Part shown: piece after piece, positions 2,772-53,797 of the stretch
Layout: every line of letters begins with the position of its first letter
Position numbering within the stretch: position 1 is the stretch's first letter
Source: Patellaria atrata CBS 101060
Taxonomy: Eukaryota
DNA length: 64,000 nucleotides
Direction of reading: 5' to 3'
Assembly: GCA_010093705.1 (NCBI GenBank)
Contig: MU006112.1
Location: 248,001 to 312,000, forward strand
Program-made: the position numbers and the translations under genes
Notes under the pieces: model-generated
The model's database searches: none
Told to the model about the DNA's origin: nothing
The model's input: the letters and a program-made list of their open reading frames with translations, nothing else

Positions 2772-5196
2772 TCACGGGATATCTAAGACCTTCTTGAGCA
2801 TCTGCTCCGCTCTCCCTGCCTCCACCCTTCCGTCTCCTCCCTTCCTCATCATCTGTCCTACAAACCACATGATCTTCCCCTTTTGCCCTTTATCCTTGAT
2901 AGCCTTCACCATAGCCGGGTTCTCAGTGACAAGTTCCTCGGCCATGATGAGGTATTGTTCGTCCGATAAGGGCCTGAGCAGGAGATCTTCCTCTTCGACA
3001 ATCTGGTCTACGGCTCGCTTGTCGCCTTCAAACTTGGTTGCCAGTACCTGTTTTGCCGCCGTGCCAGTAATCCGCTTTTGATCAACATTCCATACGATTG
3101 ATGCAATCGTCTTTATATCTATGGGTTGTTCGTCCCAAGGTAGACCACTCGTTGTTAGGAGACCGCCTAATTCATGTAGGACCCTTAAATTGAATTAGCA
3201 TCGTACGCAATGGTAACGTGAATTGAAAAGAATGTTAGTTTAGTAACAAAATATTAACGGGAACATGGAGTATAATCAAAGACGAGAAAATAAATAAGTT
3301 CAGTTACTGCAAATGTCAACCAAAAATATTAGGATCTTGTTCCAGGGGGCGTACTTTCGCTTCTCAAACCAATAAAAAGCTCACATTGAACCCAACAGAA
3401 TGGATTCCAACAATACACAAGACCACCCAAAGAGCAAAATGAAAATACAAAAACATACAGCAGTGCGCATTCGCTGGTGGTCACCCACCCAACTACTACT
3501 GCACCGATACAAGGCTTGAGTATGGCAGAGCGAACGGGATGCCCTATTTTCCTTGTTCTATGGCCGTATGTGACAGTACACTTTACCGTCCGATATTATC
3601 AATGTTGGAAACTGACTCCGGCTCCATAATAAAATGAAAAAGTCACGGTAAGGAAATTTGAACCTACCAATTACAAGCCGCCTTATTTAGTCGCACAGAA
3701 ATATTCTCCTCTCCTTCTTTTGAAAAGTTGAGATTCAATTCATTACACACTTCGAAATAAAATTCTAGTCTTTCTCCATCGTCCAGCGCGACTAGAGTCT
3801 TTGCATCCTTGAGTGATATGTTGTACTTTTTTGGATCCGTCAGCAAATTAACCAGATCATCAGGTAATAACGGCAACCGTTTATGGAGATGCTCTATGAG
3901 GGTCTGTAACAATATAAGCAAATAAAAATCAAGGAACCAGTTGAATGATCGCACCTCTCCAATTATCACGGGACCTAGGTCCGGATCTGGCATATAACGA
4001 TAATCGATCTCTCCTTCTTTACCTCTTAACCTTCTAGTCTCTGTGCTCCCGAGTGACCACCCTCTTGTTTCGCCTTCTATGACCCCTCCAGCTTCAAGGA
4101 CGGAGATTTGACGGTCTCGCTCAGCGCTAATTGCATCTTCTACTGCTTTAAAGCTGCTTAGGTTTTTAATTTCTGTACGCTGTCCTAAACCAGTAACACC
4201 GGCGTATGATCTACCAGAATTCGCATCTGACTTATCTTTTCGCCGGACAGAGACGTTGACGTCTGCACGTAATCCTCCAAGCTCCATGCCTGTTACGACA
4301 GCATTTACGGACTTCAATATCTGCTGTATCTTACGAACACATGCTGCGGCTGTTGATGGGTGATGGATGTGCGGAAGGGTTATGATCTCTATAAGTGGAT
4401 GCGATACTCGGTTGAAGTCGAGGAGATGAGTTGAGGGAGGGTATTGGATGGTCTTTGCCGTATCCTGCTCCATTTGTATTTGTTTAATTCCTATTGTGAC
4501 AGATTTCCCATCTTCAGGAGCAATGCCATCATGGTCATAGAGGGTTATCCGTCCTCCCTTTGCAAAGGGCTCTGGCAATATCGAATCAGCTTGGTTGAAT
4601 GTTCATTAATAATTGCAATCCCCACCATAGTATTGTGTGATTTGATAGCCATTTGGTTGATCCTGATAAAAATAGTGCTTTCTATCAAAGCTACTTTTGC
4701 GTTGTATATCACATTGCAGGGCGAGAGCGGCTCGAAGTGCAGGTATCAAAGTCTCTTTCTGGAATTGCGGCTGTGAGCCTGGAAATGCTACATCGAATAG
4801 AGCTACATGTGTGTTTGGCACATCACCGCTTGAAGTAGCAGCGGATGAGAACAATTTTCGCCCAGTGTTCAGCTCCGCGTGTATCTCAATTCCTACTGTC
4901 AACTCCCAATTTTTCAATCTGTCATCTGAAGCTTTTCCATTGAACCGATTCGCATTCAATTTCCCTTTTGACTTTCTCTCTTTCGCTTCATCTTTGACCT
5001 GTTTTCTAAAAGGTATGATTTGTTCCGGTGTTATGCTGGTGATGTGTAGCGCTCTAATTGTACGCGGTTGAGCGTTGACGCGCAAAGGCTGTCCTCCATG
5101 AAGCTGGAGTCTTCGCATACATCCTCGACATATGTATGGGAGTTGTGCGCTGGTTATTCGGAGGCGTGAATTGATGGAGTTTCTAGGATGGCCCAT
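2772..5196 (-). CDS. PET112: Mitochondrial glutamyl-tRNA(Gln) amidotransferase subunit B (spliced)
   Basis: GatB motifs [59 protein letters not shown]. Last intron 3184-3667 joins ACNW|VLHELGG; the last exon ends ...KKVLDIP*. Confidence 0.93.
3453..3571 (-). rRNA. 5S rRNA gene (dispersed copy) inside the gatB intron
   Basis: Minus strand reads ACATACGGCCATAGAACAAGGAAAATAGGGCATCCCGTTCGCTCTGCCATACTCAAGCCTTGTATCGGTGCAGTAGTAGTTGGGTGGGTGACCACCAGCGAATGCGCACTGCTGTATG, then a TTTTT Pol III terminator. ~119 nt, ascomycete 5S pattern; helix I (ACATACGGC/GCTGTATGT) and helix II (ACAAGG/CCTTGT) pair. Confidence 0.95.
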
Positions 5197-5543
5197 AACA
5201 ACAACAGACACCTTTGCTCAATGTGAATGTGGTGATAACAGTTTAGGAGTCACTGGAAGTTCAAGTAGTTCAGACGGTCAAAGCTCCTCAAACGCGAACC
5301 TCATCCTTGGCGTTGCTAGCGTATGAAGTAATTCCGCTCCGCAAACCTTAGACTAAATGCACCGATGCGGGAGTCATATTGCGCATCTTCAAGCCATAGT
5401 GCCGGAATATTTTGGAATTTGTCTACAATACTCACGTCAACATATTTTGACCGCTTGTCTCTGTTCCACTACTCGAATCCTTGTAATTCGTTGCACTGGG
5501 ACTTTCCTCTTCAATTTAAAAGCTCTGTCGTGTGCTCGTAGAT

Positions 5544-8427
5544 ATGGCTGAGGCCGTACCACTGCCAATCCCTGGCGAGGTACGTCCCTCTCATTGAAGA
5601 TGGTTTCAGAAGAAACTGACTGTGATTATTACTAGAGAAATATCTTGATTACTTCGTAAGCATATCTTTCCATCATAAAATTGCAGAAAAGTTTAGCTAA
5701 TCCGTATTCACAGAGCAGTACGTGGAATGCCAGTAATTACGGAGTGCCATATCATATGCTTTTCGGTCTTCAAGAAAGAGTCCCTAACTGGACATGGCCT
5801 TCTATGGGGCTGGTGATAGATGTAACCTTGGGTATATACGCATCTTCCGCTCGGTCTACCGTCCAGTTTGTGCTTTTCATGCACTTTTACGGCTCGGACA
5901 GATGTAGCCATATCCCTATATCTATCACCACCTTGTAGAAGGATTCCATGTATGAGAGCGCTTAGGCTACTTCTAACCTTGAAGAAATTATACGATAGCA
6001 TTGATATGTCTCGGTGTAGACCTGCACAATATCCTCCCCCTTACAAAAGTGCTCTGCTAACTCTTAGAAAGTTACCATACGTTAACAACGTTCGCACTCC
6101 CATTCTTTCCTACGTTGAAGAGCGAATGCTAACCTGACGGTTGATATTCAGTTCCCGCATCTTGGTAACGTCATCGGATCTGTTCTTTCAGCCGATGTCT
6201 TCTCCAGGTATTGCAAAGGACGGGGATACAACAGTATCTTCGTTTGCGGTAGTGACGAGTACGTCTTTTAGCGGAAAGATAATTATGTTTTCACTAAATG
6301 AATCAGGTATGGAACTGCATCTGAGACAAAGGCTTTAGAGGAAGGTCTACCAGTAGAAGAGCTATGTCTAAAATATCACAATCTCCATGCTGAGGTCTAT
6401 AAATGGTTTGAGATCAACTTCAGTATTTTTGGCCGTACTCCAACCAGAGAGCAAACCGAAATAGCTCAAGATATGTTCCAGAAATTGTGGGACAATGGAT
6501 ATCTCGAAGCAAGAGAGAATCTTCAACCTTATTGTGCAGATCCCAAGCATCAATCCTTTTTAGCCGATCGTTTCGTCGAGGGCGAATGCAGTATCTGCCA
6601 TGATCCTGGTGCTCGTGGTGACCAGTGTGATAAGTAAGTCACGTATTACAAATTCTTTTACATGTGTTCAATACTCACATTCTATCCGGCGCGGCTATAC
6701 CATTGTCTGTAAAGTTAGCCGCGAGGGATACAATCCAATACCCTATTTGTTCCTGAGTAGAGAATGAAGCTGAGAGTTTCTTCTAAATGGATGTATGTTA
6801 ACATGTATGACTTCCTGCAGATGCGGCAACCTTCTGGATCCCTTCGAACCCGAACAGACTTCCTCGAACGCGGATGATGACGAGGCAGCAGCTACAGGCT
6901 ATTTGATCAAGTACGTGTTAATTTCGCTTCGTCATATTTGGAAAATGGAGATGTTGTATTTCGTTATCCCTATAGCTTACCAAATCACATAGTCCTCGGT
7001 GCAAGATAGACAATACCAGGCCAGAAAAACGACCGACCACTCATATGTATCTCCTACTAGACAAACTGAGTGAACCCCTCATCGACTGGTTCAAGAAGAC
7101 CTCAAAAGAGCATCAGTGGTCGAACAATTGTATTCAGATCACCCAAAGTTGGATCACCAAAGGACTGAAGCCCCGCGGCATCACTCGAGATCTCAGATGG
7201 GGCACTCCGATACCCGACCAGTTCACAGAGTTTAAAAACAAGGTCATGTACGTCTGGTTCGACGCCTGCATTGGCTACTCCTCCATCACGGCCAACCTAA
7301 CCCCCGAATGGGAGAAGTGGTGGAAGAACCCCTCCCACGTCCAACTGATCCAATTCATGGGCAAAGACAACGTCCAATTCCACTCGATAATCTACCCGGC
7401 GACGCAAATTGGCACCGGGGACGCCTGGACAAAAGTCCACCGCATGTCCACAACCGAATACCTCAACTACGAAAACGCCAAATTCTCCAAATCAAAGGGC
7501 GTCGGCGTCTTCGGCCACAACGCTAAAGACACCGGCGTCGCCCCCTCAGTCTGGCGCTACTACCTCCTCTCCCACCGCCCCGAAACCAACGACTCCGAGT
7601 TCAAATGGTCCGACTTCATCGAAGCGAACAACAACGACCTCCTCAAAAACCTCGGCAACGGCGTCAATCGCGTCCTCAAATTCACAGCCGTCAAATACGC
7701 ATCCCTTGTCCCGGACTGGACCACTTATACCGCGTATCCCGACCTCGTCGCGCACGTGGACGAAGTCAACACACTCCTGCAAACCTACCTCGCGCATCTG
7801 GAGGACTGTCGTCTCCGCCAGGGTTTGACCGATGCGATGCACATCTCCGCCTCCCTGAACAAACTCCTCCAAGACTCCAAACTAGGCAACGCCCTCTTCG
7901 ACGCCGAGCCGGCCAAATGTGCCGCCGTCGTCGGCCTCGCGCTGAACCAGATCTTCCTCCTCGCCTCCGTCATCGAGCCCTACATGCCCGGGACCGCCGG
8001 CACCGCACTCTCCGACTCAGGCCTCGCAACGGGGATCCTGCAGCAGCTCGGGCTCGACCCTGTGACCCGGATCCCGGATATTTGGACCCCCGGGGAGGTG
8101 AGGCCGGGTCATAGGATCGGCACGCCGGCGTATCTTTTTACGCAGATTAAGCCGGCCATGGAGGAGGTCTGGAGGGAGATGTATGGGGGCGAGGAGGTTA
8201 AGAAGCAGAAGGCGCTTGCGGCTGAGAAGGCGAGGGCGAAGAAGGTGGCGAAGGAGAGGGAGAGGGCGAGGAAAGCTGCTAGGAAGGCTGCTGCGGGTGG
8301 GGTGGGGGTTGAGGGGACCGCGGCGGGGGAAATGGGAGTCGAGGCGATGGAGAAACAACAGGAGGCTGATCCTGCTATTGAGGGTGTTACGGAGGCGTTG
8401 GGGAAGGCGGATGTGAGGACTTCGTAG
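5544..8427 (+). CDS. Methionyl-tRNA synthetase (cytosolic type), 8 exons
   Basis: Spliced N-terminus [29 protein letters not shown], then CGSDEYGT, zinc knuckle CSICH...[38 protein letters not shown]. Exons 5544-5579, 5636-5655, 5714-5717, 6072-6089, 6152-6258, 6307-6633, 6821-~6910, ~6993-8427. Confidence 0.93.
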
Positions 8428-8879
8428 ATGGTGGTGTTGTGGTGTTAGGGAGGTCGGGGAGGTGTAGAAGTAGAAGTAGCTTAGATTCCGCTGTCTTGTT
8501 GATAGTTCATGCAAAGGGTTAATGCCATCTCTCTCCCGGTAGTTCCAACCCGTCAAAAATCTCTCCCCGTATTCCTTCCTCGCTCTGGGCTTTGTATTCA
8601 TCACCCCGCGATACTAAGTTCCTGATTCCAATATCGAATGAACGAATGAGTTATAAACCGTACCGTACCGTACCGTACTCATAACCATAGCTATAACCAT
8701 AACCACACACCAAAGAAATCAAAAGGGACAGAAGTTAAAAGAATCAAAAGAATCAAAAGGAGGGGGTTGGGGGATAGATATGTTTATTCGATCTCATCTT
8801 ACTTTACTTTGTCCAACTTTACTCTTGCCTTATCATAAAGGCCAAAAGTAAGCGTTGCTACGAACATAAATAAGAGTAA

Positions 8880-8976
8880 GGAAAGGGAAAAGGAAAAGGA
8901 AAAGGAAGAGGAAAAGGAAAAGGAAAAGGAAAAGGAAAAGGAAAAGGAAAAGGAAAAGGAAAAGGAAATGGAAAAA
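8880..8976. repeat. (GGAAAA)n microsatellite
   Basis: Roughly 15 near-perfect hexamer units; explains the FSFSFS / FPFPFP ORF-track entries. Confidence 0.95.
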
Positions 8977-9238
8977 GTAAAAGGTAAAAAGGCAACGGAA
9001 GGAGGAGGGTAAAGTAAAGGTAAAAAGTGAAAACAAAGGGAGCTACGAACCGAGCAGAACATAGCGGGTATCTCTCCAACACGTCTCGGGGGTCCAGGAT
9101 CCACGGCATGCAAGCCCCAAAGACAGTCTCCCCGTGTACAAATTTAAGGGGGAACGCTGCAGGAAGGGTAAGGATGCGGATGGACTAGGGATCATTCCGC
9201 AGCGAAAATAGTCGAGATAAATGTCAACAAATTTACGT

Positions 9239-9239
<1 letters not shown>

Positions 9240-9273
<34 letters not shown>
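9240..9273. repeat. (CA)n microsatellite
   Basis: Perfect dinucleotide run. Confidence 0.95.
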
Positions 9274-9274
<1 letters not shown>

Positions 9275-9504
9275 GGAGCGCAATAACAATGATAGCAAGG
9301 ATAAGTCGGAAGATACTCCAAGATGAGTCCTATATACATCCTATTAACTCAGCCCCCTTTTCCCCTATCCTCCATCCTTCCAGTCGTGAAAATTATTAGT
9401 CTCATCATCGATCTCCTGGCAATCTAGCAATTTCACCTTATCATACACCCCCCTCCCAAAAAAAAAAAAAAACTAAAAAACTTCACACCCCAACCCTACC
9501 CTAC

Positions 9505-52106: not shown

Positions 52107-52755
52107 GCTCTGATCAGGATGGCCTGACGCGACGAGATGTATATAATGGAAGATTCATGATTAACAGGAGTTCAGGTCTGGGCGGATTGGAATAGCGGAC
52201 GCTGCATGCGATTTGGAGTTTAGGGTAGTGCGAACTGGGCTTTGGGAATTGGAAACGGCCTGTACATAATCATACCAGATGCTTCTGTAAGATTCTAGAA
52301 GCAAACACAGCATAGCTCAGAGAGAGCTGAACAAATAATTACATATCATCACTCGTATCATTGACCATCTTCTTGTTGTGCCGTGATGTCTCCAGTTGAT
52401 CTGTCCGGTGGCGTATATGAACGCTAGGACCTTCCCGGATAAGCGTAACGTAATAATTCTTGGTCAGCCCGTTCGATCTGTTCAGTCACGTGATATTAGT
52501 CGCACACTAGAACAAATCCTTGGTCCTTCTCCACCTCCAGCCTGTCCCTTCTTCTTCCTTATCTCTCGTATAACTTATAACTCCCCCTTCGTCCCCTCAC
52601 TCACATCATCAACAATCAGCATCAACATCACCCTCTCTTACTTCGACACTCATCCATCAAATTCAATCACATCGGACTCTCCGAATACCAGCTTCCTCAC
52701 CTACCAATCTACTTTCCAAACGCTTCTACAGCCGCAGCTCTGGCAAACCAACGAC

Positions 52756-53797
52756 ATGGCGAAAACCAATAATAGTAGAAATTCGAGTAGTAGTAGTAGA
52801 AGTTCCACCATGAAGGACAACACTCGTGCCAACGTTTTGGCAACCTGCTATACCGTCGATGCTTCTTCGACCCTCCTCAAAGCCTTCCACTACTCCACTA
52901 TGGGGGCTTCCGGGGCCGGGTGGCGTTCCTGAGGTGAGCTCTGTAAGTATTCGCCCTCCTGCAGCTATATCATGTACAGTGTGGTTTGCCTACGCCACTT
53001 CTGGACATTGCTCTATTGCAAGATATCTAGATCGAACCTCACTAACAACTTTCCAGGGAATACCATCCCCGCCTATAAGTCCCCCCCTCGCCGCCACCAA
53101 CCTTAATAAGGTTTCGCACAGCACGTCGCGAAACCTTTCGGCGCGCAGAGGGGGGGCCGCGTACACCATCACGGGAGAGTGTGAGAGACTCTTCTGCGAG
53201 ACACTGAGAGCCGTTTTCCTGGGTGAGGGGAACATGACTCCTTCAGACTCGCTTGTGACGGGTATGCCTGAATATTACAACGCCGATATCAGTAACAATT
53301 ATAGCAACAACATCGTCAGAAATGGACTTCCGACGCCACCTCAATATGCACACGCCCCAGATGGCTTCGTGGAACAGAGGGGCGTGGTGAAGGAGTGGTG
53401 TGAGATTTATGACTACGCGGGTGGCGCGCTATTCCGCGGTTTTACGACCGGGGAGGACGATGGGAGGACTCTTTTTGTCTTTTTCGACGAAAGAGTCACT
53501 GGTCGGGACCTTAAGCCTGGGTAAGTTCTCGTTACACTCCCTCCGTCCTTGTTCCCAATATAATGTGGTAACATAAACTCTCATAGTCTTATGGCCATTC
53601 TCGAACTCTGCGACACCCCCGAATTCAACTGCTCCCGCCTCGTCGTATCCCTTGACAGAGCTACCGAACAGACCGACATGAGACCGCTGATGCGGGATCT
53701 CGGCTGGGTGGGCTTTGAGCCTTCTACACTGGACCCCTGGACCAGGAACATAGAGATCACGAGTAAGAAGTGGTTCTTCATGAGTATGGATGTGTAG
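52756..53797 (+). CDS. OAZ1: Ornithine decarboxylase antizyme, expressed by +1 ribosomal frameshift, 2 introns
   Basis: ORF1 52756-52932 ends AFHYSTMGASGAGWRS-TGA. The +1 frame continues EVSS|GIPSPPISPPLAA, ITGECERLFCETL, EIYDYAGG, DLKPG|LMAILEL, LMRDLGWVGFE. Introns 52943-53056 and 53521-53586. Confidence 0.93.

Follow-up and report, generated by a model that had tools for sequence, protein, structure and literature searches.

The cytosolic methionyl-tRNA synthetase (MetRS) gene of the Dothideomycete Patellaria atrata CBS 101060 lies on the + strand of a 64,000-nt stretch of DNA (contig MU006112.1, positions 248,001 to 312,000; hereafter the window, whose own numbering is used for all coordinates), and about 277 of the 354 nt of its third intron are a decayed DNA palindrome. 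No inverted repeat in the 64-kb window is stronger than this palindrome, which is predicted to fold into a long rod in the intron RNA, is apparently single-copy, and occupies an intron position that is shared by none of the relatives covering it. The explanation that is placed first here, and to which an even chance is given, is that a one-off palindrome is tolerated inside a young MetRS intron and zips up in the pre-mRNA, being mainly a by-product that is possibly weakly maintained at the RNA level.

DNA Palindrome and Predicted RNA Fold of Intron 3

The palindrome consists of two 133-nt arms that meet at a central hairpin (Table 1). When the left arm is aligned with the reverse complement of the right arm, 92 positions match, 18 mismatch and 46 columns hold gaps, which amounts to 84% identity over the aligned columns; the alignment scores 56, whereas 500 shuffles average 11.9 (sd 4.5, max 31). 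The same site comes first among 1719 centres in one scan of the window and among 3180 centres in a second, where its score of 65 compares with 56 for the runner-up. The symmetry ends inside intron 3: the intron flanks (5718-5744 versus 6011-6071) have no complementarity to each other, scoring 8 against 12.5 for shuffles. A candidate longer palindrome (5689-6073), which would run through the preceding micro-exon and take in the 3′ end of intron 2, was rejected as chance level, since a score as high is reached by 554 of 2000 shuffles and by 217 of 1200 controls from the window. Tandem or direct repeats of note are absent from intron 3. At the rod ends there is no convincing target-site duplication, in that no direct repeat of at least 3 nt coincides with a boundary at which more than 5 of 8 terminal bases are complementary, although a former duplication could have been lost by erosion. 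Of the 18 mismatches between the arms, only 7 are transitions, and the decay of the arms is therefore not of the type expected from repeat-induced point mutation.

At the RNA level, the sequence-only reading had described this intron as almost entirely one rod-like fold-back, and its description is borne out. All ten of the complementary block pairs that it listed lie where it placed them and are exact reverse complements, and the minimum-energy fold of the intron (-109.5 kcal/mol) is more stable than those of dinucleotide shuffles (-89.8 kcal/mol, sd 5.24; z -3.76; 0 of 100 as good), with a z of -4.1 in a separate run. For the core (5745-6010), the corresponding values are -93.8 and -65.9 kcal/mol (sd 4.49; z -6.2; 0 of 200 as good). 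The mean probability of the rod pairs is 0.81, with 63 pairs above 0.9 and 26 below 0.5. In agreement with the same reading, which held that only the donor and the branch point/acceptor are left free, the predicted rod is flanked by unpaired sequence, 21 nt behind the donor and, with the branch site among them, 56 nt ahead of the acceptor. Both strands of the core fold well (z -6.2 for the + strand and -4.6 for the - strand), as expected from an inverted repeat at the DNA level.

By energy alone, the rod is prominent without being exceptional. When the folding energies of 1417 segments of 270 nt are compared after GC adjustment, it takes first place with a residual z of only -2.3, tied with 53326-53595, and it is thus the top of a broad distribution rather than a wild outlier. 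The five short MetRS introns are unstructured (z +0.9, -0.6, -0.5, -1.9 and +0.55). Intron 6 (6634-6820), which at 187 nt is the second longest, has a z of -2.4 (2 of 200 shuffles as good) and contains a GC-rich hairpin at about 6683-6727; no sequence similar to it was found elsewhere in the window. Rfam models have no match within 5000-9000 at E values up to 1. The 7-nt apex loop of the rod, TTTTCAT, holds CAT, the methionine anticodon, within a MetRS intron, which is expected by chance in about 1 loop in 13; mimicry of an anticodon loop was considered and rejected, as the register is wrong, and the coincidence is taken as chance.

Exon–Intron Structure of the MetRS Gene

The exons of the MetRS gene were found by reading the sequence and joined by script, which gives a model of eight exons and 678 aa (Table 1) with introns 1-7 of 56, 58, 354, 62, 48, 187 and 82 nt. 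The large last exon has 100% identity to a protein named for P. atrata CBS 101060, and its next best matches are from Botryosphaeriales, at 62-64% identity. Exons 1-3 encode 20 residues that agree with the ..ILPxxG(K/E)RNILITSA of named orthologues and of metagenome loci. Intron 3 comes after a 4-nt micro-exon and separates ITSA from LPYVNN, so that the interruption of the conserved TSA/LPY motif in the sequence-only reading agrees with the exon model. The Ala encoded by the micro-exon is conserved in 76 of the 76 relatives' loci that cover the site. A 412-nt intron (5656-6067) that skips the micro-exon would also be in frame, yet it would give ITSKLPY instead of the conserved ITSALPY; because a Lys would then fall where 76 of 76 loci have Ala, this model was rejected, on conservation alone. 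Intron 3 is probably a genuine, lineage-specific spliceosomal intron in the single cytosolic MetRS gene.

Position of Intron 3 in Relatives

Relatives of the MetRS gene are encoded by 80 metagenome loci (L001-L080), of which 76 reach the Ala-Leu junction (L008, L022, L024 and L038 do not). None of these 76 loci has an intron at the junction; all read through it in one frame. Fifty-three of them are of eukaryote type (20 on contigs of 26-572 kb), among which some short ones may be transcripts, and the other 23 look prokaryotic and are uninformative on introns. All seven intron positions of P. atrata are bridged by single tblastn segments wherever loci cover them. Several fungal loci have in common an intron near residue 45, and P. 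atrata is without it. The MetRS gene thus has seven introns that all lie where relatives have none, and two of these are just 4 nt apart.

Introns of other fungi are located close by, 2 nt from P. atrata intron 2 in L037, and after LPY, 9 nt from P. atrata introns 3 and 4, in L043 and L050. The exact site of intron 3 is unshared, and the proximity of these other introns suggests that this stretch of MetRS attracts introns; ILITSALPYVNN looks like an intron hot spot.

Copy Number

Intron 3 is apparently single-copy. BLASTN with a word size of 7 finds no further copy in the window. Two whole-genome DNA contig sets (265,941 and 236,822 contigs), which agree with the window without difference and are probably its source, were searched at a cut-off of at least 80% likeness; exactly one contig per set matches 5400-7000, and none fitted a second place. 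DNA similar to intron 3 is also absent from the 80 relatives' loci. A frame of 110 codons runs antisense through the intron, and a protein search with its translation for mis-called copies gave no candidate, although this is a weak test. Twelve comparisons of intron 3 with the other six introns, in both orientations, give borderline similarity at most (2 of 300 and 5 of 300 shuffles). In a published survey of introners, Patellaria_atrata_CBS_101060 is given a score of 0 (Gozashti et al., 2022; PMC9860276, Supplementary Table 4).

The proposal in the sequence-only reading of a mobile intron or an intron derived from a miniature inverted-repeat transposable element (MITE) accordingly finds no backing in copy number, in flanking duplications or in the survey score. 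That reading had set a single copy together with an ancient, shared position against mobility: the intron is apparently single-copy, but the position is not ancient, as none of the 76 loci shares it.

Origin and Possible Roles of the Palindrome

In the explanation favoured here, the palindrome would have arisen once at the MetRS site, within a young intron or along with it. Its source would have been a fold-back or MITE-type element inserted in a short intron, or else intron sequence that was locally duplicated in mirror image. The two arms would zip into a rod in the pre-mRNA and loop the extra sequence out, while donor, branch site and acceptor would remain unpaired beside it. In the minimum-energy fold, collapse of the rod brings the donor-to-branch path down from 343 nt to some 68 nt. 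The effective intron is then some 79 nt long and has all splice signals; five of the six other introns of the gene measure 48-82 nt. As the rod folds away and so would neutralise its own length, the hairpin can be regarded as mainly a tolerated by-product.

Several points weigh against this explanation. Splicing and the use of the micro-exon are read from homology, and the fold is a predicted one. The deposited protein P0001 (680 aa) begins at ATG 6006..6008 (+), within intron 3, and its N-terminal 28 residues are those of the frame read from that ATG, as would be the case if 5718-6071 were not an intron at all, the mRNA starting within it, translation starting at ATG 6006, and the upstream 'exons' being relics. 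That is very unlikely, because P0001 is without RNILITSA, the conserved stretch directly before the LPYVNN..HLGN motif, which is common to the 53 eukaryote-type loci and the named orthologues, and because the upstream pieces give RNILITSA back exactly, via three introns with consensus signals. The absence of this stretch suggests that P0001 is a mis-annotation. Automatic annotation frequently overlooks micro-exons, and the present model corrects the deposited one by three more introns and a 4-nt exon that restore RNILITSA. Further points concern origin. A new intron position is what is expected if an element created intron 3. The copy-number test is blunt and covers only copies that are at least about 80% alike; with arms that are themselves only 84% alike and carry many indels, equally old sister copies could escape the cut-off. 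The introner survey was built on annotated introns (PMC9860276), and intron 3 is unannotated. Lastly, the 7 transitions by which the arms differ yield a G.U pair on the sense strand in 6 cases and on the antisense strand in 1 (one-sided p ~0.06), a bias that is not significant and that hints at an RNA-level constraint, unexpected of a pure by-product.

These points about origin bear on whether intron 3 is an old, degenerate introner-like element (ILE), in which a long self-folding copy would have created the intron and its sisters would since have decayed or shrunk beyond recognition. ILEs of Dothideomycetes are reportedly the subject of van der Burgt et al. in 2012. ILEs are reported to occur in hundreds of copies, to exceed regular introns in length, to fold stably, to decay quickly and to be tied to intron gains (PMC3609843; PMC4457414). 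Four of five ILE features taken from PMC3609843 are found here: a canonical donor, branch site and acceptor (GTACGT ... CTGCTAAC ... AAG) in frame with conserved flanking exons, a length well beyond that of the other introns of the same gene, a stable predicted structure (the intron has z values of -3.8 to -4.1 and its core one of -6.2, whereas those of the short introns run from +0.9 to -1.9), and a gained position. All seven MetRS introns sit where covering relatives read through, and the two longest also have the strongest predicted structure (z -4.1 and -2.4), which fits the published model of new introns that start long and folded and then shrink (PMC3609843). Several gains per gene, and gains within a few bases of introns in other species, are likewise reported for ILEs (PMC4457414), and the introns of L037, L043 and L050 lie at such distances. 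The defining feature, many near-identical copies in unrelated genes, was nevertheless absent from the window, from the contig sets at the cut-off used and from the survey, and ILE membership fails on copy number. The symmetry stops short of the intron ends, similarity to the other six introns is borderline at most, and 354 nt is about six times the length of the regular introns of this gene, whereas ILEs are put at roughly double the length of regular introns (PMC3609843). An ILE origin is thus possible but doubtful.

It is quite unlikely that the hairpin is a selected RNA device, whether a zipper for a long intron beside a 4-nt exon that also hides a decoy, an AAG/TAG switch that tunes MetRS output, or a miRNA-like precursor. 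Such a device would agree with the sense strand folding 7.8 kcal/mol better than the antisense strand, with the G.U bias described above, and with the splice signals being exactly those elements that are left unpaired. It would also agree with the position of a branch-plus-AG look-alike, TTCTAACCTTGAAG, which is paired within the rod and may thereby be masked, and with a competing TAG 4 nt upstream of the productive acceptor; any role of the look-alike and of the competing TAG is suggested here from their sequence and placement. The strand bias is not significant, however, no orthologue has intron 3 to offer covariation, Rfam gives no match even at E values up to 1, and the frequent bulges and 46 gap columns have the appearance of decay rather than of maintenance. 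Because the rod frees the splice signals, buries the decoy and adjoins both a 4-nt exon and a frame-shifting acceptor, its folding could decide whether a productive MetRS message is made. A broader version, in which the rod is either a maintained RNA device whose folding could set productive splicing of the only cytosolic MetRS message, or the last remnant of an intron-founding palindromic element that has gone unrecognised in a genome rated introner-free, is rather unlikely.

Table 1. Coordinates of MetRS exons, introns and intron 3 elements in the window
Feature	Position	Strand	Remarks
MetRS exon 1	5544..5579	+	12 residues; agrees with ..ILPxxGx.. N-termini of orthologues
MetRS intron 1	5580..5635	+	56 nt, GTACGT..ACTGAC..TAG; unstructured, z +0.9
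MetRS exon 2	5636..5655	+	20 nt; RNILIT and bases 1-2 of a Ser codon
MetRS intron 2	5656..5713	+	58 nt, GTAAGC..GCTAAT..CAG; z -0.6
MetRS micro-exon AGCA (exon 3)	5714..5717	+	4 nt; finishes the Ser codon and codes the conserved Ala; required for in-frame ITSALPY
MetRS intron 3	5718..6071	+	354 nt; donor GTACGT, branch CTGCTAAC (branch A 6060), acceptor AAG; assigned by homology
Rod-like fold-back, outermost to innermost pair	5739..6015	+	99 predicted pairs, minimum-energy fold
Palindrome left arm	5745..5877	.	Arm alignment
Palindrome right arm	5878..6010	.	Arm alignment
Apex hairpin GTGC-TTTTCAT-GCAC	5870..5884	+	At symmetry centre
Branch-plus-AG look-alike TTCTAACCTTGAAG	5971..5984	+	In 3′ arm; paired with 5767-5774 in minimum-energy fold
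Competing TAG	6065..6067	+	7 nt after branch A, 4 nt before AAG; use from the intron 3 donor would shift the frame (worked out by hand)
MetRS exon 4	6072..6089	+	18 nt, LPYVNN
MetRS exon 5	6152..6258	+	
MetRS exon 6	6307..6633	+	
MetRS exon 7	6821..6910	+	
MetRS exon 8	6993..8427	+	

Other Features of the Window

Downstream (3′) of the MetRS gene, 8850-9330 contains long simple repeats, with GAGAAA-type runs (giving poly-EK/FPF frames) and (GT/CA)n at about 9240-9270. A complete 5S rRNA gene is located at 3452-3571 on the - strand (Rfam RF00001, 81.9 bits, model positions 1-120) and is the sole match to Rfam at the gathering score in the whole window; no tRNA genes were found in the window. 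The 5S gene sits, in GatB orientation, in a gap of about 480 nt between two frame pieces of GatB/PET112 (3667-4602 and 2775-3194). This gap begins with GTAGGT and ends near TGCTAAT..TTTAAG, and the 5S gene appears to be nested in an intron of the protein-coding GatB/PET112 gene, with these putative borders. An ornithine decarboxylase antizyme gene at 52387-53521 (+) has two overlapping frames, the second in +1, and its first frame ends ..CGT TCC TGA G.. with the stop codon TGA at 52930-52932. Overlapping +1 frames are the classic layout of antizyme +1 frameshifting.

Comparison with Known Systems

Intron 3 has likenesses to four described systems. With ILEs, it shares a Dothideomycete host, U2-type splice signals, a length much beyond that of its neighbours, a stable predicted fold, an unshared position and a gene with multiple apparent gains (PMC3609843; PMC4457414); it differs from them in that no sisters were found, its size is about six-fold instead of about two-fold, and its symmetry is internal, not spanning the intron (PMC3609843).

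Transposon-type Introners (Gozashti et al., 2022; PMC9860276) are MITE-like, with terminal inverted repeats and target-site duplications, and they resemble intron 3 in being inverted-repeat DNA within a new intron. As in a MITE or fold-back element, inverted repeats lie at the ends of the element, here the 133-nt arms. Unlike these Introners, intron 3 has no target-site duplication at the rod boundaries and no family in the window or in the two contig sets, and the survey scores this genome 0.

The symmetrical (stw)introns of Hypoxylaceae have imperfect inverted repeats (~73% identity) able to fold the intron RNA; as in intron 3, the pairing leaves out the donor G, the branch A and the acceptor G, flanking duplications are absent, and there is a genuine intron on one strand only (Fekete et al., 2021; PMC8469720). 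The Hypoxylaceae introns have terminal repeats of 45-55 nt, sister families of similar sequence and often a split [D1,2] donor, whereas intron 3 has 133-nt arms that begin 21 nt inside the intron and thus do not reach its ends, a plain start (AGCA/GTACGT) without a nested donor, and no sisters found.

Splicing in yeast is promoted when a segment that follows the 5′ splice site pairs with one that precedes the branch point, and a shorter branch-point distance is the presumed reason (Rogic et al., 2008; PMC2536676). The zipper stems of this kind, such as that of RPS17B, resemble intron 3 in the location of the pairing and in the resulting shortening of the branch-point distance, which intron 3 has in its minimum-energy fold. 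Yeast zipper stems are short, selected and located in long introns (PMC2536676), whereas the insert in intron 3 pairs with itself over nearly its whole length, and any effect of it on splicing is hypothetical. Long, self-folding, recently gained introns of Dothideomycetes have already been described, and intron 3 is one more example; it is a clean single-copy case in which an intron made by an element and a palindrome arising inside an intron are separable.

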